A DNA stretch of 64,000 nt from Clostridiales bacterium (lineage in GTDB: Bacteria > Bacillota > Clostridia > Oscillospirales > CAG-272). Below the pieces are notes generated by a model. The model was not told the DNA's origin, did not search any database, and saw only the letters and a program-made list of their open reading frames with translations. Shown here piece after piece: positions 1 through 50,780 of this stretch; within the stretch, counting starts at the first letter, position 1, and each line of letters begins with the position of its first letter. Position numbers and translations under genes: made by a program. The stretch is taken from assembly GCA_012522015.1 (NCBI GenBank), contig JAAYLD010000044.1, positions 3,829 to 67,828 of the forward strand. Direction: 5' to 3'.

Positions 1-428
1 AGCCTTTTTCGGGGCTGGATCCGGTGAACGCAATGCTCCTAAAGGATGTGGTCAAGGAAGTTATAAGAAAAGGCAAAATTGTTTTTCTCTCAAGCCATCA
101 GATGAATTACATAGAGGAATTCTGCGACAGCATCGCTATTATAAACGGAGGCCAAGTTGTCCTTGAAGGAGATTTGCGCGACATCAAGCGTAATTATCCC
201 AGAAATCGTCTTGTTGTTCGTTCACTGCAAAATGAAAAAATCGCAAGAGAATACAAAGGCCGCTTTGAATGGGGCGAGAATGGTGAAATCATCATTATAC
301 TTGATACCCTTGAGGATAAGAAGAGAGTTATGAGTGAACTTACAGAGACTTATGACATTGACGAAATAAAGGTCTATGAGCCGTCGCTCAACGATATTTT
401 CGTTGAGTACGCAGAGAACCAAATATAA
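1..428 (+). CDS. ABC transporter ATP-binding protein, C-terminal part (5' end outside window)
   Basis: Reading frame is open to the window edge. FLSSHQMNYIEEFCD matches the H-loop region of ABC ATPases. An ABC-2 permease gene follows immediately. Confidence 0.8.
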   Translation, partial: PFSGLDPVNAMLLKDVVKEVIRKGKIVFLSSHQMNYIEEFCDSIAIINGGQVVLEGDLRDIKRNYPRNRLVVRSLQNEKIAREYKGRFEWGENGEIIIILDTLEDKKRVMSELTETYDIDEIKVYEPSLNDIFVEYAENQI

Positions 429-35975: not shown

Positions 35976-36884
35976 TTATTTGGTCGTGGAAATAAACGCA
36001 ACAGCGTATGCGGCAGCGTGAACGATGGCAGCACCGCCGCAGAACATAAGACACCGCAGGGCAAGAACATAAAGTGATGTGGCGTGTGATTTCATCTTCG
36101 GCGTATGTGCCTTTGCCTCAATAAAACTGTCCGCACGCATAACAGCGCCGGTTGCCGCAGCAACGAGCATTGCGGACGTGACGGTAGCGGCGGTTGCAAA
36201 TGCGGCAAGAACTACATCCTGCGATGCCGAATACGATAAGGCGCAGCCGGCTGACACACCGCGTATGAAAAGGAGGGAACAGCATACATACCGCGACATG
36301 TATGTTACCGACGATAAAAAGATAAAAGCAATCAGCAGTATTTCAGGCAAAGCTGCCATACACAAAGCACGAAAGAAAGATATGATGGAGTCAAACCTTA
36401 CGGAGTAAAACGATGCAATAAACGCATCAAGCCGCCCGCCGGCGATGGCGGCAAAATCAGCTATAAGTTTACTGTCGACTTTTGATAAAGCGGCGCCTGT
36501 TGCAGCACCTACGATTAAAACAGCTGAAAACAAAAGCCCGAGTAAAGCCTCGCTGTGGCGTGGCTGTTCCTTTATTGAAACACCCGCTTCAATTTTATTT
36601 TTAGCTGTTTCTGTTTCATTCGGCGATATAACCTCTGCTGCCGATTCATTCTCAGATGAGCTGACAGCGTTTTTTGCCGCTTGCGCATCATCTTGCGACG
36701 CCGTCACAAGTGTCGGTGCCGATGACTCCGATAGTATGTCATCAGGCGCCGGTAAGTCGCCCGGGATAGGACTGTGGCATGATATATCCGTTATTTTTAT
36801 CGCAGGCGTCAAATGCGATGTCTCGCCCGGTGTTGACGTGTCTTTTGTGATAGCATTATTATTAATTTCCAATTCGATTCCCAT
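35976..36884 (-). CDS. Hypothetical membrane protein with a disordered N-terminal region
   Basis: N-terminal 110 aa are Ser/Ala/Glu/Pro-rich. The C-terminal half has about 5 TM helices. Confidence 0.4.
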   Translation of the reverse strand: MGIELEINNNAITKDTSTPGETSHLTPAIKITDISCHSPIPGDLPAPDDILSESSAPTLVTASQDDAQAAKNAVSSSENESAAEVISPNETETAKNKIEAGVSIKEQPRHSEALLGLLFSAVLIVGAATGAALSKVDSKLIADFAAIAGGRLDAFIASFYSVRFDSIISFFRALCMAALPEILLIAFIFLSSVTYMSRYVCCSLLFIRGVSAGCALSYSASQDVVLAAFATAATVTSAMLVAAATGAVMRADSFIEAKAHTPKMKSHATSLYVLALRCLMFCGGAAIVHAAAYAVAFISTTK

Positions 36885-38891: not shown

Positions 38892-38904
38892 CTTAAGTAT
38901 AAAT

Positions 38905-38945
38905 ATAAAAAACCCGGTGCGGAAATCTTCGCACCGGGTTTTTTA
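38905..38945. terminator. Bidirectional terminator separating the UPF0210 gene from the phage-like cluster
   Basis: AAAAAA-CCCGGTGCG/CGCACCGGG-TTTTTT. It lies 33 nt beyond the stop of the last phage-like gene. Confidence 0.85.
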
Positions 38946-38977
38946 TGCCGTATTTTAGCTTTCTAACTGCCGCTTTT

Positions 38978-39445
38978 TCATCCTTCACGCGAAACCGACA
39001 CAACAAGATTCGCCGGGACCATCCGGACTATCATATCTTTTATAATTTCAAACTCCTCATCAGATCCCGCCGATATCACAACCGACAGCGAAGAAGCCGC
39101 GGCATTGACGTCAAGCGTAAAATTCTCCTCGCCACACAGTTCAGCAAGTCGATGACGCAACATACTTTCTGTATACGGCATACCGAAGCGTCCCTTTGCC
39201 GCTAATCGCAGGCGTCTTACGGCGTCTGTGTCTGTAGGTTTTGACGTAACACCGAGGACATCTTCATGACGGGCGAGCCAGCGCTCCTCTGCGTATTTAG
39301 TGAATGGAGCGTCACACATCGCAGCAATATCATCGTAAGCGCGTCTGATGGCGTTGTCGATAACATATGCTAAAGCGCGAAATTCGCGTACATTTGAAAA
39401 AAGCTGAGGCAGATAATCAAGATAATCCTTTTGTTTTATATTCAT
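38978..39445 (-). CDS. XkdU/YmfQ-like baseplate-associated protein (DUF2313-like)
   Basis: 155 aa, immediately after and 4 nt overlapping the baseplate J gene, as in PBSX-type modules. The N-terminus KDYLDYLPQLF resembles this family. Confidence 0.5.
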   Translation of the reverse strand: MNIKQKDYLDYLPQLFSNVREFRALAYVIDNAIRRAYDDIAAMCDAPFTKYAEERWLARHEDVLGVTSKPTDTDAVRRLRLAAKGRFGMPYTESMLRHRLAELCGEENFTLDVNAAASSLSVVISAGSDEEFEIIKDMIVRMVPANLVVSVSREG

Positions 39446-40533
39446 ATAATAGTCACGCTCTCGAAGACTGGCACGATGTTGCTATCAAGCGTTATGCTTG
39501 ATGACACATATGACCCAGATGCGCTGTCATAAATAGTTGTACCGGATACACCTGTAACACATTCCGTCGATAGAATAGCGCTTTCAATGTCTGCTATGTG
39601 TATTATACAGTTATCTACAAAAGCCCACTTAGTGGCGAGCGCATTTACATATTTATCGACGGCTGATCTTATTAACTTGGAAGCTGTTAACTGGTTCCAG
39701 CCGGGAGCATATGTAACGCTTGTCTTGACGATAACGCTGTAACTATCGACTGCCTCGACCGTAACAGAATGGCCAATGGGTGCAACGCCAGAGCCAAGCC
39801 CTGTTTTATCAGCGGGGTCAAGGATATTCTTAATTGATTTAATAAGAGATGTTACGGGCACGCCGTAATCACTTGCTTGAACGACAATTTTTACCGTTCC
39901 GCCACCTGCATGAGCGGGGAAAACCTTGACTCCACCGACGCCGTCTATTTCCGATACATATTCAATATAATCAGCGGCATTACCTCCAAAGGGGACGCCT
40001 GATGCCGCACGCAACACACGTACACGGAACGCTTCTGTACTTTCTTCATCTTGTCCGGGAGAGATGATTCCGCCTGCGCTTGAGTATTTAAGGCCCTCAA
40101 TATATGATACCGGGCTCAAAGTACCATGCGAAAAAGCGTTTGGTTCAGAACCGGGTGTATCACATATTACCTCATATTCTATTACGTGACTACTATCTGA
40201 AATAAACTTACCTAATGTGTAAACATAGTCACGTAGGGTGAACTTACTTCCTTCTGGTAAATATGAATCAAATCTTCCCCTTAAAACTGTGCGCGTTGCC
40301 TCCTTTGGTCTTATGCCATATTCAGCACCGTGCCGGATTAAATACTCGCGTGATGCTGTATCGGAGAACATTTCGGATGCCACTTTAGAACATGCCTTAT
40401 AAAGCTTATCAAGCTCTGCGGCTACCGGTACGACTGCGTCATAGAAAATAGACCCCACGCTTGTGTCTATTCCATCGGGCGCTGCCGAAAGCATGTCAGA
40501 TAAAATTGCGTCAAACGTTTTTCCCTCAAACAT
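39442..40533 (-). CDS. Baseplate J-like protein (XkdT-like)
   Basis: FEGKTFDAILSDMLSAAPDGIDTSVGSIFYDAVVPVAAEL and TASREYLIRHGAEYGIRPKEAT follow the baseplate J pattern. ATG at 40533 with a GAGGG RBS. Confidence 0.7.
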   Translation of the reverse strand: MFEGKTFDAILSDMLSAAPDGIDTSVGSIFYDAVVPVAAELDKLYKACSKVASEMFSDTASREYLIRHGAEYGIRPKEATRTVLRGRFDSYLPEGSKFTLRDYVYTLGKFISDSSHVIEYEVICDTPGSEPNAFSHGTLSPVSYIEGLKYSSAGGIISPGQDEESTEAFRVRVLRAASGVPFGGNAADYIEYVSEIDGVGGVKVFPAHAGGGTVKIVVQASDYGVPVTSLIKSIKNILDPADKTGLGSGVAPIGHSVTVEAVDSYSVIVKTSVTYAPGWNQLTASKLIRSAVDKYVNALATKWAFVDNCIIHIADIESAILSTECVTGVSGTTIYDSASGSYVSSSITLDSNIVPVFESVTII

Positions 40534-40547
40534 ATAATCACCAGCCC

Positions 40548-40901
40548 TCAGTAACAAATATCGACGTACACAACAGCCAGAGCCTTACCACTATATCTTT
40601 CGTTTTTAAAAACAGCTGATTTGAAAGCTTCTCCGTATCGCATAAAAAGAGCATCTTTTATCCTCTCGGAGAGCTCAACGGCAGCATAATGATAATCCCG
40701 ACCTATAAGATCACGGCGATCCACACCAAAAAAGCCGCTATATATATCGCTGTATATGCTTCGTTCGGTGGAGACAAGTAAAAATAAATCCTGGCGAACA
40801 GCGTCTTTCCCCTCGACAAACCCGTTTATCGAATAACCGCAGCCGTCTTTATGGAGTGCATATGTTTTAGACGATGAGTACTTACCATAAAATTTTGACA
40901 T
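40548..40901 (-). CDS. XkdS-like small baseplate protein (DUF2634 / gp25-W-like position)
   Basis: 117 aa, in the position between the XkdR-like and baseplate J genes. Confidence 0.45.
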   Translation of the reverse strand: MSKFYGKYSSSKTYALHKDGCGYSINGFVEGKDAVRQDLFLLVSTERSIYSDIYSGFFGVDRRDLIGRDYHYAAVELSERIKDALFMRYGEAFKSAVFKNERYSGKALAVVYVDICY

Positions 40902-40910
40902 AACGCCCCC

Positions 40911-41201
40911 TTATTTAATGATGTCAATAATGGCATAGCATTGTCCGCCCTCAGCTCTAACCATCATGACATAGCTGCCTTTAGCAAGCTCGGATGAGAC
41001 AGTTCCGGTATACGATGTCCCGCCAATGTTCACATTAAATGTTCGGCTGTAAATCGATGCGGGTGTTATCAGCGCCGAGCCGGTGAGCGTAACATTATTA
41101 TCAATCTTCACAGATAGTGGAGATGTCGATGTTACGACACCACATATAATGTCAGCGGTGACACCGCCATCATGAGCAGTCCCCGCATACTTAATACTCA
41201 T
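40911..41201 (-). CDS. XkdR-like protein (DUF2577; spike/plug position)
   Basis: 96 aa. GVVTSTSPLSVKIDNNVTL and the C-terminus GSYVMMVRAEGGQCYAIIDII match the XkdR-type pattern. Confidence 0.55.
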   Translation of the reverse strand: MSIKYAGTAHDGGVTADIICGVVTSTSPLSVKIDNNVTLTGSALITPASIYSRTFNVNIGGTSYTGTVSSELAKGSYVMMVRAEGGQCYAIIDIIK

Positions 41202-41243: not shown

Positions 41244-42164
41244 TCAGAGCGCCGAAAGATTAAGCTTCATCGTATAAGAGCTACCAAAAATGTGTTCGGC
41301 GCGCTCACAAAAATAATCAGCAGCTCCATCGCCAAAATCAGCGGTCACAACAGCGCCGGCCCGAGCCGTCAGGTCACCTTTAGTGCATGTGCAAACAATG
41401 CTCCGTTTAGGCGTTGACAGTGAATTGAGAAGGTTAATAGCAACAGATGTTCCATTTTCCTGCGGGCTTAATCTCCCATAATATTGAAGCACACCGTCCC
41501 GGGCGATACGCTCCATATCTTCACGAATGAAAAAATGCCTGCCGGTCCCGCTTGTCTGAACAAGCTTAACTTTGTTGTAATAGTTCTTATCTATGGAAAC
41601 GGTAATTGAAAAATCAGTACATACAGATGGTGTCATGACTGTGCCACAGCGAAGAGACGTCATGCGTTTAAGGCAAAGCCTGCCACAATCATCGTAGTAA
41701 ACAAACTCACCAAAACCGGCGCCGGAGGTAAGTGTCAATGCGTAATCAATAATTTTGTAAAGCGAGACGCCATCCTCAAGACGCGCCGCAATGCGGTATT
41801 TAGTATCTTCGATTTCACCTGTGGTAAAGCCATATTGCTTGGCGATCCTTAGCAGAAGCTTGGATGCCGTCATTCCAACGTATTCAACAGTATCTTTATT
41901 TTCAAAATACCGCAGCATGTCATATGCCGTGTATTTGTAGAGCTTTTCATGCCCGTATTCATATTTAAATACAACACCTTTAAATACGTCGGTACCTCCA
42001 TAACGGAATGTAACGTTCTCACCCGTTTTAATATGCTCGTCAGCGGTAAAATAAAGCGTGCCGGCACTGCCCTGTTCCGTTACAAATCGAACATTATCGT
42101 GCGGTGTGATAACACCTGACGGGAGGATAATCTCGCCACGTGTGTTTGTGACCGACATAATCAT
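41244..42164 (-). CDS. XkdQ-like baseplate hub protein (late-control-D-like)
   Basis: 306 aa. GENVTFRYGGTDVFKGVVF, YDMLRYF, TASKLLLRIAKQYGF, VYYDDCGRLCL and SIDKNYYNKVKL follow the XkdQ family pattern. Confidence 0.6.
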   Translation of the reverse strand: MIMSVTNTRGEIILPSGVITPHDNVRFVTEQGSAGTLYFTADEHIKTGENVTFRYGGTDVFKGVVFKYEYGHEKLYKYTAYDMLRYFENKDTVEYVGMTASKLLLRIAKQYGFTTGEIEDTKYRIAARLEDGVSLYKIIDYALTLTSGAGFGEFVYYDDCGRLCLKRMTSLRCGTVMTPSVCTDFSITVSIDKNYYNKVKLVQTSGTGRHFFIREDMERIARDGVLQYYGRLSPQENGTSVAINLLNSLSTPKRSIVCTCTKGDLTARAGAVVTADFGDGAADYFCERAEHIFGSSYTMKLNLSAL

Positions 42165-42577
42165 AATATCTCCGCCCCGCCGGGATAACGCTTGAGCTTC
42201 AGCGCTGCCGTGACGCTGCCATCATTGTTACGCTTGAGTGTGGCGCGCTTTAATGTCGCATTGAAGCTATATGAATCGAAAAGTGAACCATCATCTCCTG
42301 CCGCTATTGCGATTACACGGAACGGCCACTGGGAAAGCGATGTAAGCTCGTCATAAAACTCACCCGGACGTATAAATCCACCCTCCCATGTAGCAAATTC
42401 CGTGTTGGTCGCAGGAAAATCAAGCGAAAACTCGATTTCATCTGGCGCCGGCGGCGAAAAAATGGCTCTGTCATAACCATCGGCAAGCCTTGCAATAGTA
42501 GTGCAGTCGCCACGAGTTATAACAGTCTCGTCCGGAAAAATGGGCATAAGACGACCGTTGATAAAAAGCTTATACAT
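42161..42577 (-). CDS. XkdP-like (LysM-less) protein; alternatively a divergent tail tube
   Basis: 138 aa. MYKLFINGRLMPIFP at the N-terminus, PFRVIAI in the middle, and a C-terminus LKLKRY, as in the protein that normally follows the tape measure in PBSX-type tails. It does not resemble XkdM tube proteins. Confidence 0.4.
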   Translation of the reverse strand: MYKLFINGRLMPIFPDETVITRGDCTTIARLADGYDRAIFSPPAPDEIEFSLDFPATNTEFATWEGGFIRPGEFYDELTSLSQWPFRVIAIAAGDDGSLFDSYSFNATLKRATLKRNNDGSVTAALKLKRYPGGAEIL

Positions 42578-42612
42578 AAGACGTAACCCCCGATTTTGTG
42601 ATGGCGCGCCGG

Positions 42613-43881
42613 TTAAGCCATAAAAATTGTTATACTGACGTCATATGGGCGCAAAAGTGGCGATACGGCGAGCGAAGCGGTGATAGCGCCTTCCCCGTCT
42701 GTTGTCACATCGGCGGAAATAGTATCACTTCGTACCGCACCGTACTTATGTGATAGCAGAGAAAGAAACGATCTTATCTCATCCGCAAGTGTAGAGCACC
42801 CCGCTGCGTCATCATAGACAACATCTGCATATTTATCATTAAAAATCGTGCGTATATTTGAAACTATATAATCATACAGGCGAATACAGGAGTTGTCGGA
42901 GAGCATACAATCAGATTTTGAAGCCGATGTGTTTATATCACGAAAGATACGAGGGTATAATTCAGCCTTTTTGTGATTTTGATAAACAATCTGCCCCTCC
43001 TCCGCAAGCTGGGAGCACTCTTCATCAGAAAAATCAGCCATTATACCGAAGCTTCCGGCATAACTTTTACCCGCAAGCGTTTCCCACGGATATGAGCTGG
43101 CGCAAAGTCCGGCTGTATAGTAAACAACCCCGCCGCCACCGTATGAATCTTCATTATAAACAGACGTTACAAAAGCGCTGCCATCTCCAAAATAGCGAAA
43201 AAGTACGCATTTTACACATCTCCCCGCCTCTCTCTCACGCCGAACAGCTGAAATACAAGCATCAGCATGGGCAGGTGCGCCATCAGCACACGCTAAGATA
43301 TCAATATTTATTGGATGAGCAAGAAGAGCTTCAATACCGGTGGCAAAATCAAATTCGTCAGGCGTTGCATCGGCACCTCCCGTCAAGGGAAGCCCCGCCG
43401 TCTCAAAAATCACAGCGTCGCGATTGAATATAACAAAAGCATTGTCTTTCAGCTCGGCAGCACTGATGACGACCTGACTGTCAACAGCTTCACTGCAAAG
43501 ATATGTAACAACACGGTATGAACCGTCATCCTGTAAATAAACAACAAGCCTGATTGAATTCCCTCTCGCACCGGGATAACGGGCTTGTCCGAAAGAGCAC
43601 GATGCAACAGAACCACCAGATGGGCGAAAAACAGCTACGGATGATGCGTTTGCAAGAACATCACGTATGCCGTCAAGTGATGGGTCGTCTATGTCGCACG
43701 CGAAAGCTTCTTTAATATATCGCCCCGGTATGAAGCTGCTGCGGGAATAAAGAGAAACCTCGCCGGGTGCGCCCCAGCCAGCATTATATACAATACCGAC
43801 AGTACCGCGCCCACCACCGGGTGGCACAGCGCCGCACCCGTTATAAGCGGTGACACCGCTTGACGCATATATATTTTTCAC
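42613..43881 (-). CDS. Contractile tail sheath protein (XkdK-like)
   Basis: ARYPGARGNSIRLVV (compare PBSX AKYPGARGNRISVTV) and LPLTGGADATP (compare LTGGNDGT). 422 aa. Confidence 0.75.
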   Translation of the reverse strand: MKNIYASSGVTAYNGCGAVPPGGGRGTVGIVYNAGWGAPGEVSLYSRSSFIPGRYIKEAFACDIDDPSLDGIRDVLANASSVAVFRPSGGSVASCSFGQARYPGARGNSIRLVVYLQDDGSYRVVTYLCSEAVDSQVVISAAELKDNAFVIFNRDAVIFETAGLPLTGGADATPDEFDFATGIEALLAHPINIDILACADGAPAHADACISAVRREREAGRCVKCVLFRYFGDGSAFVTSVYNEDSYGGGGVVYYTAGLCASSYPWETLAGKSYAGSFGIMADFSDEECSQLAEEGQIVYQNHKKAELYPRIFRDINTSASKSDCMLSDNSCIRLYDYIVSNIRTIFNDKYADVVYDDAAGCSTLADEIRSFLSLLSHKYGAVRSDTISADVTTDGEGAITASLAVSPLLRPYDVSITIFMA

Positions 43882-43929: not shown

Positions 43930-44337
43930 TTAAATAAATGAAACATTAATTTCTATTGACTTCATAGGCACGCTTCCGTATGCCGGCGGCGGGATTGTAG
44001 CAGCCATCTCACCGGAATAAACGACCGTAAGCTCCGAATACCTATCATATGCCTTACATTCGTAACTTTCGGCGACGACCTTATCATCCCCCGGTGATAG
44101 CTCCCTTACCGCGTTGAGAAGAGCTGAGCCGTCATGAACTGCCGACGGTGCTCCGGCGGTGAAATACCGAATTTTAACGGCAACCTTAGGGTCACCTCCG
44201 GAAGAATAAAAGCGGTCTACAGTAAAGAATAAGGAGGGAGCTGTGGCGTCAGCAGGAGGGCGCCCTACCGTGATGGCGACGCCGGGGAACGAAGCCCCGA
44301 GCGCCGCGCCAACAGCCGATGCAAAAATATCGGTCAT
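43930..44337 (-). CDS. Head-tail joining / tail completion protein (family uncertain)
   Basis: 135 aa, positioned between the connector and the sheath. Confidence 0.35.
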   Translation of the reverse strand: MTDIFASAVGAALGASFPGVAITVGRPPADATAPSLFFTVDRFYSSGGDPKVAVKIRYFTAGAPSAVHDGSALLNAVRELSPGDDKVVAESYECKAYDRYSELTVVYSGEMAATIPPPAYGSVPMKSIEINVSFI

Positions 44338-44846: not shown

Positions 44847-45926
44847 TTAACAACCTAATGAGATTATTCTTGCAATCGGAATAAGCGACACATCGATAGG
44901 ATTTTCCTCGGAGTCAAAAACAAGCTCCCAGTTGGCGGGGTTTGCGAGGTCAGTATCCTCAGGCGACAGCGAAGCCTGCTCCTTTTTGATGTAATCAAAG
45001 CCAAACGGATGAATGACCTTGCGCTGGCGAGAATAAAGAATGTCGGATCCTCCGTTGCTGCTCGGGTCGCGATACATCTCATACGGCACCTTTGCACCGA
45101 TATTCTCATAGAAGAAAGCGCCTTCTCCAAGAATATATGAGGTGTATATGGTTCCCTTATCCAGCACCGTTTTAGTAGGAAGCGCGTCACTGACAATGAC
45201 GGAGCGTCCGTTCCATGATCCGATTGAAAGATCACGTGTGATACCCTTTGAGTCTACGTATGTCATATAATTTAAAAGCTGAAGGTTTTCAAGGTTCGTC
45301 GCGATAACAGAGTGGAGGAGAGCAACCGTAAACTTACCCTTATTAGCCCCGCATGCCTTCTGAATCGCAGTATTAAGCGTCGTTGCGCCAACAAGGGCGG
45401 CCTCGCCTGTCTTATCGCTTATATCAAGCGTGTGAGTATCGATGAAATTACTTTTCGCCACACGTTTGTTGTCGTCACCCTCTTCCTCACCGTCATCAAG
45501 CTCGCGAAGCGAAAAGATACCGCCTAAAATGGCAATGAGCGTAGCTTCATCGACTGTTTCCCAGTATTCGGCGATTTGACGGGCGACAATGTCCATATAA
45601 TCATCGCCTGTCAGGTCAGCGGTAAAATCACGCTCCGTCCATGCTTTTGCCCGCCCAATGACGTTCGCACCAAACTCATATGAAGGCGTATTTACCGGTA
45701 TAATGTCAGTTATACCGTCGTAGTTTTGCGCAGCTCCCGTAATAGCACCGTAAAGCGGAATTTTTGCGTATGCTGCATTAGCGGCACCTCGGAATATGGA
45801 ACGAATCTCCGGATTCCCGATAAACGCGCGGCGTGCTTTCAACTCGTCAATTTTGATGCTCGGTACACGTGCAACAAAAGAGCCAAATGCTTCAGAGTCA
45901 AACTTTTTATAGTCAAAGTTTGCCAT
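44847..45926 (-). CDS. Major capsid protein
   Basis: 359 aa, following a GP20-type scaffold gene. Size and position fit. I recall no diagnostic motif. Confidence 0.6.
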   Translation of the reverse strand: MANFDYKKFDSEAFGSFVARVPSIKIDELKARRAFIGNPEIRSIFRGAANAAYAKIPLYGAITGAAQNYDGITDIIPVNTPSYEFGANVIGRAKAWTERDFTADLTGDDYMDIVARQIAEYWETVDEATLIAILGGIFSLRELDDGEEEGDDNKRVAKSNFIDTHTLDISDKTGEAALVGATTLNTAIQKACGANKGKFTVALLHSVIATNLENLQLLNYMTYVDSKGITRDLSIGSWNGRSVIVSDALPTKTVLDKGTIYTSYILGEGAFFYENIGAKVPYEMYRDPSSNGGSDILYSRQRKVIHPFGFDYIKKEQASLSPEDTDLANPANWELVFDSEENPIDVSLIPIARIISLGC

Positions 45927-45986: not shown

Positions 45987-46469
45987 TCAGCTTTTGCCAT
46001 AAAGGCGCAAATATTCGCTGTATGTCAGGTCAGATGCCATAAAATCGTCATCCGATTCCTCAGCAGGTGCAATTCCGACAAAAGATAGAGCCTTACGCCC
46101 GCTGTAAGCATAATCAGAGCCGAAAAGATACGGCTCCGCTTCCGCAAGAGAGCGAACAGCCTCGGTAAGGCCCGCCGGCGTGCCCTCAAAGTCGCCGCCA
46201 TCATATGTATAATTGAGTACAGCTTTCGCCGCTTTAATGTTGCGCGCACCTGCTTTTGAAAGCTCCCGCTCAATAGCGAAATTGAGCTTCTGCTCTAAAA
46301 GCGCACGCTGCGCTTTCTCAGAAGATGCCCGTAGCTTTTCTTCAAATTCCGCCTTTATGAGCGATGTTGCCTCGTCAACCGCAGCTTTTGTAGAGCGCTC
46401 TACCTCAGCTAAGATTGCATCAGCCACATCGTCGCCAATACCGAGTGGCATGAGAAAACTTTTGTCCAT
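45987..46469 (-). CDS. Scaffolding protein (phage GP20-like)
   Basis: 160 aa, coiled-coil and Ala/Glu/Lys-rich, between the portal and capsid genes. N-terminus FLMPLGIGDDVADAILAE. Confidence 0.65.
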   Translation of the reverse strand: MDKSFLMPLGIGDDVADAILAEVERSTKAAVDEATSLIKAEFEEKLRASSEKAQRALLEQKLNFAIERELSKAGARNIKAAKAVLNYTYDGGDFEGTPAGLTEAVRSLAEAEPYLFGSDYAYSGRKALSFVGIAPAEESDDDFMASDLTYSEYLRLYGKS

Positions 46470-46502: not shown

Positions 46503-47864
46503 TTAATTTAATTCAAGCCGCGCAAGCTCGCCTTCGATATCGTCGACATACGGATGCTGCGCGATGAGAGTTCGTCGAGATAAAATACCCTCCGAATTTT
46601 TAAGCGAATTTATAATTTCAGACTCGTTTATAAGAAGATCGCGGTTTAGCACAACCTTTGCAGCAACCCCTCTGAAATCGCCCGCCCCGGTATAGTATAA
46701 ATAAGAACGAATGTAACCAAACCACGACTCGAAAGCGCACTGAAGCTCCGATTCAAAGCCATTTGCGTCAAGGTCGATGTCCGAATAAATCGCAAGAACA
46801 TTCATTTGATTCGGATTGTTTGAAAGACGTCCGTCGTGAGAGTCAAAACCCCGGCAGCACTCCGTCAGTGCCTGCATTAACATTTTCTTTAGCGCTTCGT
46901 AATTTTCAGCCTTTACCTCAACAGCCAAGCTTTCGACGCCGCCATCGCCTCCGGCGTCAGAGCGCACCTTGACAGCTCCATACGCCGCAAGATTGCGGCG
47001 AAATTCACCAAGGTCCTCACCATCGTAATTTTTTAACACAAGAACTGTACTCCGGCTGTTCTCCTGCATGTTGTCAGCAAAATCAGACACCAAAATATCA
47101 AGAGCATCCTGCAAGTTCTTTGCCCGCCTGATAAGCGGAACCTCGCTGCTGTTATATTTAACGGGGATTATCGGGACTCTGTCCCAGAGATAGCCCTTAC
47201 CATTGCTGTCACAAAAATGATACCCGACTCGTGAAACAGGGCGCAGCCGCCCATTTGAATATGCGTACTCCTCAATCCCGCTTTTTGTATAAACAAAAAC
47301 GCTCTCTTCAACCGAACGGCGTCGGTTGCTGTAAACCTCACGTGTACACAGCCGTATAAAAGCATCAAGCCGCGTGTGAGCAGCATCGCTCCAAAGCGGC
47401 AGACACATTGTCGGATCAAATCGCCGCAGAGTAAGCATTCCACTCTTGTCTATATAAGGATGAAGCCATGCAACGCCACAGTTGACAGCGTCAGTTGCCG
47501 TATCCCGCCATATTTTTTTTGCTGTATGCTCGAAAAAACTGGCAAGAAGAGATGCAAAACGCTTATTATCACAATCAATTGAAAACGGTTTACCAAGCGA
47601 ATAATTTATCTTTTGATCGACAAGCCGCGCATATTGCCCGACAGCTATTCTGCTGCAAGCGACGTTATCAAGCACCTCAGGCTTGCCATCAGCGCCAATA
47701 GCCGTTTTATGGCGGCGCAGCACATCGTGTTCTCCTGCATAATAACGCTTAGCCGTTATCATCTCCTCTCGGCGACGGGAGGAAAGGAATCGCGCCAGCT
47801 CCGCTTCAATCATGTCAAGATAACAGCCCCGCCCGCCATTCACTCTCATTTCTTTTATCATCAT
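46503..47864 (-). CDS. Portal protein (SPP1 gp6-like)
   Basis: About 453 aa. AKRYYAGEHDVL near the N-terminus is characteristic. ATG at 47864 lies 8 nt after AGGAG. Confidence 0.75.
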   Translation of the reverse strand: MMIKEMRVNGGRGCYLDMIEAELARFLSSRRREEMITAKRYYAGEHDVLRRHKTAIGADGKPEVLDNVACSRIAVGQYARLVDQKINYSLGKPFSIDCDNKRFASLLASFFEHTAKKIWRDTATDAVNCGVAWLHPYIDKSGMLTLRRFDPTMCLPLWSDAAHTRLDAFIRLCTREVYSNRRRSVEESVFVYTKSGIEEYAYSNGRLRPVSRVGYHFCDSNGKGYLWDRVPIIPVKYNSSEVPLIRRAKNLQDALDILVSDFADNMQENSRSTVLVLKNYDGEDLGEFRRNLAAYGAVKVRSDAGGDGGVESLAVEVKAENYEALKKMLMQALTECCRGFDSHDGRLSNNPNQMNVLAIYSDIDLDANGFESELQCAFESWFGYIRSYLYYTGAGDFRGVAAKVVLNRDLLINESEIINSLKNSEGILSRRTLIAQHPYVDDIEGELARLELN

Positions 47865-48052
47865 CAAAAAAACTCCTGACCGTGTTATCGTCTGTATCAA
47901 CACAAAACAAAAACACTGCGCATAACATTAAGCAGCCTATATAAAAAAGCCTAATCAAACCCTGACAACACTTGAATTGTAACACTGAAAAAAAGTAAAT
48001 ATCGTCCAGATTTTCCCGCTGCAGTCACAACAGTATAACGGAACAAATAGTT

Positions 48053-49297
48053 TTAAAAGCTGAAAACAGCACCCGCCGCTGCATCCTCAACTGCATATCT
48101 CATTGCATCCATCAAATGATCGCACTTGCCAACCGGACGGTTGACAGCCTTCCCTGATGCATCCGTTGCCCAGACATAACTACGTATTTCTTCGGCGAAA
48201 GCGCGGCAGCACGGATGAATGATAATTTTATTTCGTCTGACAAGATCTATACCTGAAAGAAGACTGTCCCGTCCCTTTCGCGACGGAACAATCCGGTAAA
48301 GCCCAAGCTCACGCAGCTCAGATATCGACTTTGGCTCCGCAGCGTCGGCACAAATCCGCTCCTTTTTATATCCCCGCTCAATTATGAGGCGTGCGAGCCG
48401 ATCGTTTGTCAGCGAACGCTCGTATATCTCGTCGAATACATATATTTCACGTGTGGCAGGGTCAAAAATACCGCAGAAAAGAGCGCTCGGATCGTTCGTA
48501 TAACCAAAATCAAGCCCGAATATCGCCTTTGTACCGGGACGCCGAAGAATATCGGTGGGCGAAAACTCCCTTATCTCGTAGTTTTCATAAACAAGACCGC
48601 TCTCGTGCCCCCACTCGCCAAGCCCGGCAACGCGATAACGAGCCGGACGCTCCTTTTTCATTGTCTCGAACATTCGCCGGTCAGCCTCGTCAAGAAATTC
48701 GTTGCACATATAGTTTTTCGTAACAGCAAGAATATCGGGCGACGGAGGTGCGTCAAAGAACCGGCGCTTTAACCAGTGATTTTCATTCCACGGATTAAAC
48801 GTCAGCGTGATTTGCTTAAAATAACCATCAGGCACAGAACCGCGTATAAGCTCATCGAGTGTGTTAAAATCATCTTCATTCGTTATCTCAAACGCTTCCT
48901 CAATCCAAAGCCAACATAAAGCGCCGTACTCGACAGCAATTGACGTCAGCTTCATCGGATCGTCAAGCCCTTTGAAGATAATTTTTTGCCCTGTCCGCCG
49001 TCGCGTTATCTCAAGCGGAGAGGTGCGAAACTCAAACTCCCTCTCGACGCCAAGGCGACGCGCCGCCCATTTCAACTCCGTGTAACAGGAACGCTCAAGC
49101 GACGCGTAAGTCCTTCGCACAACGAGCAGATTGGCAAGCGGATACTTCCGCAGCCCGTTAATATACCAGAGAGCCGCCGTCTTTGACTTTTTCGATGCGC
49201 GTGAGCCTTTGACAACACGGTACCGCCCGCGAAAACGCCAAAAGTCAGCATATCCGCCCCCTACCGCTTGCGAAATATCAACCTTACGCCAAAGCAT
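48053..49297 (-). CDS. Terminase large subunit (PBSX XtmB-like)
   Basis: N-terminal ATPase with VKGSRASKKSKT (Walker A-like) and a C-terminal nuclease. It overlaps the small subunit gene by 14 nt. Confidence 0.8.
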   Translation of the reverse strand: MLWRKVDISQAVGGGYADFWRFRGRYRVVKGSRASKKSKTAALWYINGLRKYPLANLLVVRRTYASLERSCYTELKWAARRLGVEREFEFRTSPLEITRRRTGQKIIFKGLDDPMKLTSIAVEYGALCWLWIEEAFEITNEDDFNTLDELIRGSVPDGYFKQITLTFNPWNENHWLKRRFFDAPPSPDILAVTKNYMCNEFLDEADRRMFETMKKERPARYRVAGLGEWGHESGLVYENYEIREFSPTDILRRPGTKAIFGLDFGYTNDPSALFCGIFDPATREIYVFDEIYERSLTNDRLARLIIERGYKKERICADAAEPKSISELRELGLYRIVPSRKGRDSLLSGIDLVRRNKIIIHPCCRAFAEEIRSYVWATDASGKAVNRPVGKCDHLMDAMRYAVEDAAAGAVFSF

Positions 49298-49766
49298 CGT
49301 TACCCGCGCTCGTATTATCCTCCTCGTCAAAGAGGAGCTTCTCCTCACCGACGATTACAGTTTGCCTCATACCGCCGTCGCCATTGAAAATGCCATAACG
49401 ACGGGCTAACATTTCTGCCGCTGACATCCGCTCTTTTACCGACGCGCTTTTCTCGATTACACGAGCAGCACGCTCGGTTTTACCGGATGCACCTGTAAGC
49501 TGCTCAACAACGACAACAGGCTCGCGCACACATCCTCGCATGACAGACGTCAGCATCCGAAGAACCTCATCACACCCTGCAATACCTGAATCATTGTCAA
49601 AATCATAATCCGACAAGCCAAGCTCTTCCCTGACAGCTTTGCTTTTGAGAAGAGAAGCCCGACTTCCGGCTTTGTAACCGGCAAGGCGCGCCGCTTCGTT
49701 TACATTCTTGCAGCTTCTATAATATTCACAAAACTTCCTTTGTTTTTCAGTCAACTTCCTTTTCAT
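49284..49766 (-). CDS. Terminase small subunit (P27/Terminase_4-like)
   Basis: MKRKLTEKQRKFCEYYRSCKNVNEAARLAGYK is the canonical HTH N-terminus of this family. Confidence 0.75.
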   Translation of the reverse strand: MKRKLTEKQRKFCEYYRSCKNVNEAARLAGYKAGSRASLLKSKAVREELGLSDYDFDNDSGIAGCDEVLRMLTSVMRGCVREPVVVVEQLTGASGKTERAARVIEKSASVKERMSAAEMLARRYGIFNGDGGMRQTVIVGEEKLLFDEEDNTSAGNDALA

Positions 49767-49922
49767 ATACAAACCGCTCTGCGTTATTTTTATTGAGGTG
49801 TATAGTACCTCCTACCGAAGCAAATATTACCACGCCAAAGCGGTAAAAACCGTCATCCTGTAATCGACCTTTCATGCGCTTGCGCCATCATAAAACATAG
49901 CTTTTAAAAACGCACCTTTCCC

Positions 49923-50345
49923 TTATAGCTGCCCGTTTAGCTTCATGTATCTTTCACATCGCTTACGGGCGTATTGCTCGTCATACTCGCCGAGAGCAAA
50001 TGCTGTTTGCTGCCAGGTCTTCCCGTATAAAAACCGATGTTTCATCGCTGACCGTATAAAAGGTATATCGATCGCTTCAATATAGTGTTCAATTCTTTCA
50101 TACTTTGAGAGAAGCTCGTCCATCCGAGTCTTTATACTTGTCTCAAGCTTTGATATTCTCACATCAAAGTCAACAGTATCAGACTCCGAATATTCTTTTT
50201 CTTTGAGTGCTGCAGCCGCTTCACGAAGCGCTGCAAGCTCGCGAAGCTGCGAGCGCAGAAGCTGGAGTTCGTATTTTATGTGACGGTACTGCGAAAGCTC
50301 GTTTTTGATATTATATGTTGTCCTTTTTTCGCTAATACGACTCAC
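49923..50345 (-). CDS. Phage late-gene activator, sigma-70 region 4 / ArpU / DUF1492-like
   Basis: 140 aa. N-terminal coiled coil. C-terminal RSAMKHRFLYGKTWQQTAFALGEYDEQYARKRCERYMK is HTH-like. GTG start overlaps the upstream ORF by 14 nt. Confidence 0.55.
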   Translation of the reverse strand: MSRISEKRTTYNIKNELSQYRHIKYELQLLRSQLRELAALREAAAALKEKEYSESDTVDFDVRISKLETSIKTRMDELLSKYERIEHYIEAIDIPFIRSAMKHRFLYGKTWQQTAFALGEYDEQYARKRCERYMKLNGQL

Positions 50346-50649
50346 CAGCCTTCATAATTTTGTCTGTAATCTCAGAAAGCGCTTCGGAGACTGAGCCAAG
50401 TCCGCATATATCAAGAAATTCCGCCATCGAAAGCTTTTCAATGCACATCTCGCATATTATCTGCCCGACACCGTGACGCAGCCCGTATATGTACGTATCG
50501 TCAGGGTAAATACAGCTTCCGCACGAGCCACATACAAGCTCGCTTCCGCACCCTGAATCACAGAAGTATTCATCTGCGCATCCTGCGTCGCCAGCATTGA
50601 GCGGGCATCCTTCCATATGACTAAACCCATAACCGCAAACGTCACACAT
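50332..50649 (-). CDS. Cys-rich (multi-CxxC) small protein, first gene of the phage-like cluster
   Basis: ATG at 50649 follows a GGGGG RBS. The 105-aa product has 17 Cys, including CDVCG, CGSCGSC and CEMC. Confidence 0.5.
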   Translation of the reverse strand: MCDVCGYGFSHMEGCPLNAGDAGCADEYFCDSGCGSELVCGSCGSCIYPDDTYIYGLRHGVGQIICEMCIEKLSMAEFLDICGLGSVSEALSEITDKIMKAGESY

Positions 50650-50659
50650 GGCTAACCCC

Positions 50660-50673
50660 CAAACAAATGTTCG
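50660..50673 (-). promoter_or_regulatory. LexA (Cheo) box 1 in the leader of the phage-like cluster
   Basis: Minus strand CGAACATTTGTTTG fits GAAC-N4-GTTY and abuts the RBS of the first gene. Confidence 0.55.
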
Positions 50674-50689
50674 TTTTATGTGAGAAATA

Positions 50690-50715
50690 AAACGCGCCAA
50701 AATAAAAGCGCGTTT
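50690..50715 (-). promoter_or_regulatory. Leader hairpin (terminator-like) between the promoter and the first phage-like gene
   Basis: Minus strand AAACGCGC-loop-GCGCGTTTTATTT, starting about 8 nt after the predicted transcription start. Confidence 0.45.
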
Positions 50716-50729
50716 ATTTTATGTGCCTA

Positions 50730-50758
50730 ATTATACCATAAAATTTAGATATTGTCAA
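50730..50758 (-). promoter_or_regulatory. Consensus extended -10 sigma-A promoter of the phage-like cluster
   Basis: Minus strand TTGACA-17 nt-TATAAT with TGg immediately upstream of the -10. Confidence 0.75.
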
Positions 50759-50766
50759 TATAAAAC

Positions 50767-50780
50767 AGAACAAATGTTCG
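50767..50780 (-). promoter_or_regulatory. LexA (Cheo) box 2, 8 nt upstream of the -35
   Basis: Minus strand CGAACATTTGTTCT has a perfect GAAC-N4-GTTC core. It shares the 12-mer CGAACATTTGTT with box 1. Confidence 0.6.

Follow-up and report, generated by a model that had tools for sequence, protein, structure and literature searches.

How could an operon for a contractile tail have been kept by its host if the sheath gene abuts the baseplate module, with no gene for a tail tube, an assembly chaperone or a tape measure between them, and what could such an operon build? Tape measure, tube and sheath are usually treated as the inseparable core of contractile tails. The locus was analysed within a window of 64 kb (the whole stretch of DNA considered here), in which a single 16-gene operon spans 38.9–50.8 kb of the minus strand (Table 1).

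Gene content and control of the operon

The ancestry of the 16-gene operon is that of a PBSX/phiCT453A-like myophage. As in PBSX of B. subtilis (XkdK to XkdU) and in Clostridium phage phiCT453A, the closest cultured phage, genes for TerS, TerL, an SPP1-type portal, scaffold, MCP, adaptor, XkdK, the N-domain of XkdP and XkdQ to XkdU were found in the same order. Compared with both, XkdM, XkdN, the tape measure, the LysM domain and two or three neck proteins are missing (two neck genes are left here, against four or five in relatives), as are the SPP1 gp7-like minor head protein, fibre and lysis genes, and all the non-structural phage genes. In particular, no replication, integration or lysogeny gene was detected among the 16 annotated operon genes, and the flanks consist of host genes. 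An R-type tailocin would have no head or packaging genes, whereas here TerS, TerL, portal, scaffold and MCP are all present and under selection.

Table 1. Features of the operon and its control region, in the direction of transcription (positions in the window).
Feature	Position	Strand	Evidence or remark
LexA/Cheo-box-like palindrome just upstream of the -35	50767..50780	-	CGAACATTTGTTCT; sister sublineages CGAACAATTGTTCG
Sigma-70-type operon promoter	50730..50758	-	TTGACA-17-TATAAT, 12/12, with TG; conserved in L001, L013, L094
Hairpin plus T-run in the 5' leader, possible attenuator	50690..50715	-	
Second LexA-box-like site, between leader hairpin and RBS	50660..50673	-	CGAACATTTGTTTG; invariant in four sequences
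Cys-rich small protein, first gene	50332..50700	-	dN/dS 0.12
Phage-type transcriptional regulator, 140 aa	49923..50345	-	phrog_36, E 3.1e-8
Terminase small subunit	49284..49772	-	PF03592; phrog_51
Terminase large subunit	48053..49348	-	PF04466 + PF17288
Portal, SPP1 gp6 type	46503..47903	-	PF05133, E 1.8e-64
Scaffolding protein	45987..46469	-	PF06810
Major capsid protein (MCP)	44847..45926	-	phrog_247, E 2.6e-75; 50% identity to phiCT453A MCP
Head-tail adaptor, 127 aa	44453..44836	-	phrog_132, E 3.6e-6
135-aa protein, probable tail terminator (weak)	43930..44337	-	syntenic position; hhalign; PF20765 E 0.29
Tail sheath, 422 aa, highly diverged	42613..43881	-	phrog_279 E 2.4e-38; dN/dS 0.21
Sheath/initiator spacer, 35 nt, GGGGG RBS	42578..42612	-	site of tube, chaperone and tape measure in canonical relatives
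LysM-less tail tube initiator, 138 aa (XkdP N-domain / diffocin CD1367 type)	42161..42577	-	dN/dS 0.24
Baseplate hub, XkdQ/YqbQ type	41244..42164	-	PF24032, E 4.9e-62
XkdR-like protein (DUF2577)	40911..41201	-	PF10844
Sheath initiator (XkdS / gp25-like)	40548..40901	-	PF10934
Baseplate J wedge protein (XkdT)	39442..40557	-	PF04865, E 1.6e-42
XkdU / Mu gp48-like wedge protein, last operon gene	38978..39445	-	PF10076
Strong bidirectional intrinsic terminator closing the operon	38904..38947	.	host DUF711 gene converges

The product of the first gene gave no family match, and its start is likely the ATG at 50648, giving 105 aa, as called in the related sequence L001. Pfam sheath domains scored below their cut-offs on the 422-aa ORF, and the sheath call rests on phrog_279 together with these matches; both ARYPGARGNSIRLVV and LTGGADATP lie in this ORF. 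The 135-aa protein was colinear with tail terminators over 124 columns at E 0.007 and a probability of 5.5% (hhalign, 54 canonical terminators), whereas no similarity to tubes was detected by the same method, and it was dropped as a tube candidate. The 127-aa protein was also dropped as such, being the head-tail adaptor. From gene order, the XkdR-like protein may act as the spike, as for diffocin CD1369. An antisense ORF of 189 aa within the sheath gene (42858–43427, plus strand) was discarded as spurious, as stops break it in sister sublineages. An Rfam scan of the window returned two tRNAs and nothing else.

The promoter and leader are 89% conserved, and the operon is possibly SOS-controlled via its two LexA-box-like sites, both of the form CGAAC-N4-GTT(C/T), the upstream palindrome being a candidate SOS box by comparison with the Bacillota consensus, CGAAC-N4-GTTCG.

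The sheath/initiator junction and the 138-aa protein

Reading the minus strand, the sheath gene is followed by the spacer, the 138-aa gene and the XkdQ hub gene, whose start overlaps the stop of the 138-aa ORF. The coordinates, the 35-nt spacer, the GGGGG and the motifs recorded by the first-pass annotation were reproduced when the ORFs were re-checked, with MYKLFINGRLMPIFP, PFRVIAI and LKLKRY all located in the 138-aa ORF, and the portal, of 466 aa, was again the largest ORF in the cluster. The claim that tube, chaperone and tape measure are lacking in the cluster also held, here for the entire window: HMMs for the three proteins, built from 50–56 canonical relatives and run on all six frames, detected nothing (best E 1.1–1.8, the tube HMM reaching 1.8), and the XkdP HMM in the same search recovered the 138-aa ORF at E 1.4e-11. 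A hidden tube gene is impossible in the operon because no intergenic gap is longer than 150 nt. Larger ORFs elsewhere in the window corresponded to the Pfam families E1 dehydrogenase, GH2 and ClpB (cellular enzyme or chaperone) or to DUF5722, with no phage-family Pfam match among them.

Comparison with relatives showed what normally occupies this position. In all 61 related loci from GTDB reference genomes (61/61), a block comprising a tube of ~157 aa, a chaperone of ~145 aa, a tape measure of 630–980 aa and a LysM-bearing XkdP of ~225 aa was found between sheath and XkdQ, separating them by 2546 to 7434 nt (median 4614), against ~450 nt here; the annotated order in phiCT453A is likewise XkdK-XkdM-XkdN-TMP-LysM-XkdQ. 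Where a complete PBSX-like tail module would have a tube, a chaperone with frameshift and a tape measure between sheath and XkdP, this operon has only the 35-nt spacer. Independent assemblies from ENA, Logan, JGI and IMG/VR (L001–L005, L011, L013, L094–L098) show the same junction, which excludes an assembly artefact, and the exact 138-aa protein is present on 207 contigs.

Regarding the identity of this protein, the first-pass annotation had seen in it a LysM-less XkdP-type protein rather than an XkdM-type tube, and profile searches, hhalign and Foldseek all bore this out. An exhaustive HMMER search recovered proteins of ~215–250 aa whose first ~135 residues cover the entire query, most of those scanned carrying a C-terminal LysM domain; in the alignment, the XkdP N-terminus is kept from residue 1 and the protein ends at residue 138, truncated before the linker and LysM. 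There was no Pfam match even at E 10, nor any Pfam or PHROG match to DUF2001 tubes. Against the PDB, the HMMER profile gave E 4e-26 for the "tail tube initiator" gp61 of phage phiCD508 (9g8s_T / 9gb2) and E 3e-13 for diffocin CD1367, a protein of 140 aa without LysM, and hhalign against 48 XkdP N-domains gave a probability of 98.3% (E 1.8e-14, columns 1–132), compared to 0.1% against DUF2001 tubes, with no XkdM/DUF2001 similarity.

An AF2 model built from 32 sequences (pLDDT 76.5, pTM 0.71), used instead of an earlier, poor one from 4 sequences (pLDDT 59.7), predicted a tube-like beta-sandwich plus one helix. Its top Foldseek matches were chains of diffocin and phiCD508, with 8v3w_G first, followed by 8v3w_T (both from the diffocin baseplate entry) and 9gb2_S (phiCD508), at TM 0.56–0.59. 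By profile and by model, the 138-aa protein is thus the N-terminal tube-fold domain of an XkdP-type tail tube initiator like phiCD508 gp61 and diffocin CD1367. The latter, deposited as "tube tail" (PDB 8v3w_G), is similar also in its size (~140 aa), its lack of LysM and its gene directly before the hub gene, where canonical loci have theirs too; LysM is therefore not universal in the family. Hcp and VgrG appeared among the weak Foldseek matches.

In diffocin and phiCD508, CD1367 and gp61 form, as initiator, one hexameric ring that sits on the hub trimer and below the tube's first ring, with a separate tube protein above it and the tape measure threaded through (PMC10996793, PMC13324602). Sequence comparison makes the 138-aa protein an ortholog of this ring, with a putative hexamer here, but, unlike in diffocin and phiCD508, neither a tube protein nor a tape measure is encoded nearby. 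The suggestion that it could be a novel tube can be kept only loosely, in that tube initiators have the same fold as tubes, and not at the level of sequence similarity to DUF2001. Its gene does lie directly after the sheath, the usual place of XkdM/DUF2001, but this is a matter of position alone, brought about by the deletion.

Inheritance, selection and divergence

The operon is flanked by the same host genes in three sublineages, with all 16 ORFs intact. Its genes showed dS values of 0.36–0.84, against 0.28–0.72 for the flanking host genes, and dN/dS values of 0.04–0.25 across all 16 genes. From the shared site, the intact genes, the host-like dS and the low dN/dS, the element is to be regarded as vertically inherited, host-retained and under purifying selection, and not as decaying. 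The lineage belongs to abundant uncultured Clostridia, mostly from anaerobic digesters.

A deeply diverged sister lineage (L008–L010), available as contigs of ≤3 kb only, presented the same arrangement, i.e., a sheath C-terminus, 25 nt, a 137-aa LysM-less protein and then XkdQ, at 27–51% protein identity to the window clade. It grouped with the window clade against 45–80 canonical homologues with bootstraps of 40/40 for XkdQ, 40/40 for XkdT, 36/40 for XkdS and 32/40 for XkdR, a monophyly that could be inflated by long-branch attraction. No further relatives of the sister-lineage protein P0023 were detected in a set of 5.8 billion proteins or in IMG/VR. The 138-aa family itself gave nothing in GTDB species representatives and no match among 50,697 phage genomes, and only the close sublineage in IMG/VR and JGI.

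These comparisons indicate that an ancestor lost, long ago, the contiguous XkdM tube, XkdN chaperone and tape measure plus the LysM domain of XkdP, and that the sheath gene therefore directly precedes the initiator gene. A precise deletion, one of three readings among which the first-pass annotation stated no preference, is thus sustained as the historical origin by the full block in canonical relatives and by the XkdP N-terminus kept from residue 1, but not as a simple recent event, as the diverged sister lineage shares the junction and purifying selection has acted since. Divergence was uneven, with ratios of window-to-canonical over canonical-to-canonical identity of 0.53 (sheath), 0.67 (hub), 0.78–0.79 (wedge proteins) and 0.99 (capsid protein). 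By these ratios, divergence is greatest in the components that are usually in contact with tube or tape measure, above all in the sheath, which has just 23–27% identity to its PBSX/phiCT453A-type relatives.

What the operon may build

We read the locus as a domesticated, PBSX-like element in which everything from tube to tape measure was lost long ago, and whose operon either builds a new type of stub tail or obtains the missing parts from elsewhere. Most plausibly, it is a candidate producer of stress-induced GTA-like or PBSX-like particles, because terminase, portal and capsid genes are present, replication, integration, lysis and fibre genes are not, and LexA-box-like sites lie by the promoter. 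In its genes and their history, it resembles GTAs and domesticated prophages (RcGTA, PBSX) in being a head-tail operon of ~12 kb with terminase at a fixed site, co-diverged with the host, under purifying selection and apparent host regulation, and free of replication, integration and lysogeny genes. It differs from alphaproteobacterial GTAs in having no sequence relationship with them beyond generic phage families and, to our knowledge, the main cluster of every GTA described so far retains a tail tube and a tape measure.

Whether the operon suffices without an XkdM-type tube or tape measure, taking together a stub tail and a stacking initiator, appears to us an evenly balanced matter. In the stub tail, DNA would pass from the portal through the adaptor, the 135-aa protein as terminator, the initiator ring and the hub to the spike. 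The wedge proteins XkdS, XkdT and XkdU would hold one or a few sheath rings, which would form a collar; the length would be fixed by stoichiometry, leaving nothing to measure. We put forward tentatively, as a somewhat doubtful proposal, such a tubeless and tape-measure-less myophage-derived particle, in which adaptor and terminator would set the capsid on a single initiator ring, hub and spike, with the remodelled sheath as collar. Equally tentative is the idea that a long contractile tail would here have evolved into a short one, and that the change became fixed in a domesticated, SOS-induced GTA-like element. In known contractile systems, the sheath assembles on the tube as a scaffold and tube initiation normally requires the tape measure, and we know of no precedent for a tubeless sheathed tail; the literature yielded nothing relevant on contractile phage elements without a tape measure.

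It is quite possible, though short of probable, that an ordinary long contractile tail is completed in trans, the genes for tube, chaperone, tape measure, the absent neck proteins, fibres and lysis being located either elsewhere on the chromosome or on a related prophage in the same cell. The search covered 64 kb of a genome of ~1.85 Mb. GTAs can be distributed over several loci, RcGTA among them, whose peripheral genes are found away from its main cluster, and the rest of the present genome may likewise contain genes for tube, tape measure, fibres and lysis. A tube would most readily explain why purifying selection acts on the sheath, the probable terminator and the sheath initiator, fibre and lysis genes, also absent from the operon, would be required by any particle that leaves the cell, and scrambled gene orders in the related elements L064 and L093 indicate that modules relocate in this group. 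On the other hand, no homologue of any plus-strand ORF of 80 canonical loci was detected in the remaining 52 kb of the window, the loss of a contiguous block is simpler as deletion than as relocation, and no split GTA is known to us in which the core tube and tape measure are at a different locus from sheath and hub. The strong divergence of the sheath argues against a tube borrowed from a canonical helper phage, while leaving a co-evolving trans locus unaffected.

Stacking of the 138-aa initiator into a short tube, the less likely way for the operon to be self-sufficient, seems improbable. It would form a multi-ring polymer inside the sheath, and the tail's length would either have no control or depend on how the terminator competes, in the manner of the T6SS, which combines a sheath with gp25/gp27-type baseplate logic and works without a tape measure, but which has an Hcp tube, no capsid and a membrane anchor, with no homology to the operon beyond shared folds. 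The predicted tube fold (AF2, Foldseek), the gene position, the loss of LysM and the purifying selection on the gene are consistent with this; however, the protein is orthologous to single-ring initiators and not to tubes, and the loss of LysM is uninformative on polymerisation because the LysM-less initiator of diffocin coexists with a normal tube and tape measure. Finally, an inert prophage remnant, its tail killed by deletion and its other genes decaying, would account for the absent tail, fibre, lysis, integrase and replication genes and for three deletions of 1 bp each in the genes for the 135-aa and 138-aa proteins of a 99.9%-identical strain (L005), but it is very hard to sustain and largely refuted by the dN/dS results, with 16/16 ORFs intact at dS ~0.4–0.8, the same junction in the diverged sister lineage and a conserved promoter and leader, and with the L005 deletions, from an assembly of 3.6x coverage, set aside as probable errors.

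A lineage in which sheath, baseplate, initiator and capsid stayed under selection long after tube and tape measure were lost would offer a test of how minimal a contractile-type tail can be, and of how long-tailed particles might become short-tailed. Should the missing parts be encoded elsewhere, no other domesticated element known to us would have its core tail genes divided among loci. In both cases, an abundant lineage of uncultured Clostridia gains a GTA-like element that may be under SOS control.

Gene content of the operon and comparison with canonical loci

The minus strand of the window carries, from 50.8 down to 38.9 kb, 16 tightly packed ORFs, identified by family searches (Pfam, PHROG), and the operon they form is a descendant of a PBSX-like myophage. 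The sheath stop and the start of the 138-aa gene are separated by 35 nt with a GGGGG RBS inside the gap, and the 138-aa gene ends in an overlap with the start of XkdQ. The first-pass annotation had proposed that the cluster lacks a tube, a chaperone and a tape measure. The sequence motifs that it quoted were all found in the ORFs it named, and HMMs for these three proteins, built from 50–56 canonical relatives, gave no match in a six-frame search of the 64 kb (best E 1.1–1.8), so that their absence in cis was confirmed; the same search picked out the 138-aa ORF with the XkdP HMM (E 1.4e-11). The portal is the longest ORF of the cluster, and for the bigger ORFs elsewhere in the window the Pfam matches are confined to families of cellular enzymes or chaperones and to DUF5722. 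A 189-aa ORF antisense to the sheath gene was rejected as a gene, as it is interrupted by stops in the related contigs L001, L013, and L094.

Features of the operon and its surroundings (window coordinates)
Feature	Position	Strand	Description
Gene 1	50332-50700	-	Cys-rich small protein
Gene 2		-	phage-type transcriptional regulator (phrog_36)
Genes 3, 4		-	TerS, TerL
Gene 5		-	SPP1-type portal
Gene 6		-	scaffold
Gene 7		-	major capsid protein (phrog_247)
Gene 8		-	head-tail adaptor, 127 aa
Gene 9	43930-44337	-	135-aa protein, no assignment from family searches
Gene 10	42613-43881	-	sheath, 422 aa (phrog_279, E 2.4e-38)
Gene 11	42161-42577	-	138-aa protein, no assignment from family searches
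Genes 12-14		-	XkdQ/YqbQ hub; XkdR (DUF2577); XkdS sheath initiator
Genes 15, 16		-	XkdT baseplate J; XkdU/Mu gp48-like
Promoter	50758-50730	-	sigma-70, 12/12 match
Palindromes	50660-50780	-	CGAACATTTGTTCT and CGAACATTTGTTTG
Terminator	38904-38947		strong, bidirectional, closes the operon
Antisense ORF	42858-43427	+	189 aa, rejected
Host-side gene	35976-36884	-	302 aa
L005 deletions	44105, 44092, 42445		three of 1 bp (L005:8475-10133)

An XkdQ alignment scan of GTDB species representatives yielded 80 canonical loci from Clostridia and Bacilli, whose ORFs had no homologues in the window outside 38.9–49.3 kb. In the 61 loci with complete sheath and XkdQ genes on one strand, the spacing between both was 2546–7434 nt (median 4614), against about 450 nt in the window, and the canonical interval encodes a tube (~157 aa), a chaperone (~145 aa), a tape measure (630–980 aa), and XkdP (~225 aa). 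The nearest cultured phage by capsid protein (50% identity), Clostridium phage phiCT453A, is annotated in the order XkdK sheath, XkdM, XkdN, two small ORFs, tape measure, LysM protein, XkdQ, XkdR, XkdS, XkdT, XkdU, and fibre, an order also found in the distant sheath relatives L006 and L012. Also missing from the window element, by comparison with these, are the fibre and lysis genes, two or three neck proteins, an SPP1 gp7-like minor head protein, and any non-structural genes.

Two other arrangements were observed. Locus L090:8490-9275 (GTDB MAG RGIG8445, Bacillota) has the canonical order, yet just a 261-aa ORF between chaperone and XkdP, whose last ~40 residues weakly match several canonical tape measures at their extreme C-termini (E 0.006–0.08); this ORF may encode a tape measure drastically reduced in length, and hence represent an intermediate in tail shortening. 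Loci L093:1-11294 and L064:1-12434 have head genes among the nearest to those of the window (MCP 49–52%, portal 41–45%, and, for L093, TerL 59% identity), in a scrambled module order, which in L093 is sheath, tube, XkdS, XkdT, XkdU, ..., chaperone, TerL, XkdQ. The tape-measure HMM found no match in the retrieved parts of both; these orders may reflect real rearrangements or errors in MAG assembly.

Identity of the 138-aa and 135-aa proteins

The 138-aa protein was identified as a tube initiator. Only four close homologues came out of a word-indexed search, and HMMER, run exhaustively on 1.84 billion representatives, gave 36 matches, most of them of ~215–250 aa, with the first ~135 residues aligning with the entire query. 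The alignment showed a common N-terminus (MYxxYIDGxLLPVxP) and a PFRFI motif, and the 138-aa protein terminates directly ahead of the linker and LysM of its homologues, a C-terminal LysM domain being present in 5 of the 10 scanned. Among solved structures, the alignment profile matched phiCD508 gp61, described as "tail tube initiator / peptidoglycan-binding LysM protein" (E 4e-26), and the LysM-less, 140-aa "tube tail" protein CD1367 of diffocin (E 3e-13), which sits as a six-copy ring between hub and first tube ring and is alternatively named tail tube initiator (PMC10996793, PMC13324602). The AF2 model, from a 32-sequence alignment (pLDDT 76.5, pTM 0.71), had 8v3w_G, 8v3w_T, and 9gb2_S as top PDB Foldseek matches, and the top BFVD matches were LysM or "tail assembly" proteins of 180–260 aa. 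Finally, hhalign aligned columns 1–132 with 48 XkdP N-domains of canonical loci (98.3% probability, E 1.8e-14), versus 0.1% probability with 56 DUF2001 tubes. The earlier description of this protein as a "LysM-less XkdP-type" one is borne out by the profile, hhalign, and Foldseek matches; it has a tube fold solely because initiators and tubes have that fold in common.

The 135-aa gene lies at a position syntenic with the tail terminator. Its product was colinear with 54 terminators over 124 columns in hhalign (E 0.007, just 5.5% probability) and matched PF20765 along its N-terminal 55 residues (E 0.29), and no similarity to tubes was found by hhalign; from this weak evidence, it is probably the terminator. 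Regarding the remaining parts, the ratio of window-to-canonical to canonical-to-canonical identity was 0.53 for the sheath, the most disproportionate, 0.67 for the hub, 0.78–0.79 for the wedge and initiator proteins, and 0.99 for the capsid protein; change has thus been greatest in the parts that normally touch the tube and the tape measure.

Inheritance and regulation of the operon

Assemblies made independently for three sublineages (the window and L005; L001, L002, L011, and L013; L094 to L098) carry the operon at an identical host site, with AP endonuclease and YpsA at one end and DUF711 and ACT at the other. Contigs encoding an identical 138-aa protein number 207, reach 1.85 Mb in length, and come from MAGs with the labels Clostridiales, Eubacteriales or Bacillota. 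In comparisons of the window with L001 or L013, dS was 0.36–0.84 for element genes and 0.28–0.72 for flanking host genes, with dN/dS of 0.04–0.25 for the 16 element genes (sheath 0.21, 138-aa gene 0.24). These values fit co-divergence with the chromosome and indicate a vertically inherited element with purifying selection acting on every gene. Contig L005, 99.9% identical to the window, showed three deletions breaking the 135-aa and 138-aa genes, which are probably sequencing errors because its coverage is only 3.6x, a real inactivation being less likely. On the host side, a 302-aa gene stood out from its neighbours by much greater divergence (72% identity; dN/dS 0.36–0.40 versus 0.03–0.19 in the remaining flanking genes).

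Downstream of the promoter come a leader hairpin with a T-run, a GGGGG RBS and, at 50648, an ATG that is probably the true start of gene 1 in place of the listed TTG. The product of this gene contains several CxxC-like pairs, had no match in family searches, and is 87% conserved (dN/dS 0.12). Two CGAAC-N4-GTT(C/T) palindromes, which we take to resemble the Bacillota LexA (Cheo) box, bracket the promoter and leader; the motif is not enriched over the whole window. Conservation among four diverged sequences is 89% for both palindromes and the entire 160-nt leader, a level that appears higher than expected of unconstrained sequence at a coding dS of 0.4–0.8. This suggests that the operon may be under SOS control plus attenuation, SOS control being a lead and not a result.

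Proposed particle architecture and origin of the element

LysM-less initiators are already known from diffocin CD1367, as are PBSX-like tails, domesticated prophages, and GTAs. Literature searches returned no description of a selected, capsid-encoding cluster of contractile type with sheath, initiators, and baseplate but without tube and tape measure, and we know of none. There is about an even chance that the particle has dispensed with both the XkdM tube and the tape measure, whichever way it is built; this is favoured since deletion happens more often than relocation and selection on the element has persisted ever since. Somewhat under even is the version in which the terminator would cap a single initiator ring sitting on the hub, with the sheath serving as a short collar. 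A comparable chance, also short of even, is given to the tube, tape measure, fibre, lysis, and missing neck genes lying elsewhere, either at a second locus or on a helper prophage; the scrambled L064 and L093 elements show that modules do move within the group. Polymerisation of the initiator itself as a tube is improbable, and an inert remnant is essentially excluded by such dN/dS values and by the 16 genes all being intact in the window and in L001 or L013.

As to the origin of this gene order, contigs L008 to L010, from a deep sister lineage, all ≤3 kb, carry P0023, a 137-aa protein without LysM and 30–36% identical to the 138-aa one, in the order sheath C-terminus, ~25 nt, 137-aa gene, XkdQ, XkdR, XkdS, XkdT. 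Their proteins are the nearest to those of the window outside its own clade (XkdR 47%, XkdT 51%, XkdQ 38–39%), and the two lineages group together against 45–80 canonical homologues in NJ bootstraps (XkdQ 40/40, XkdT 40/40, XkdS 36/40, XkdR 32/40). With the caveats that these contigs are short and that long-branch attraction is possible, the most parsimonious reading is that the segment from tube to tape measure, together with LysM, was lost once, in an ancient event, and that the element was long retained thereafter.
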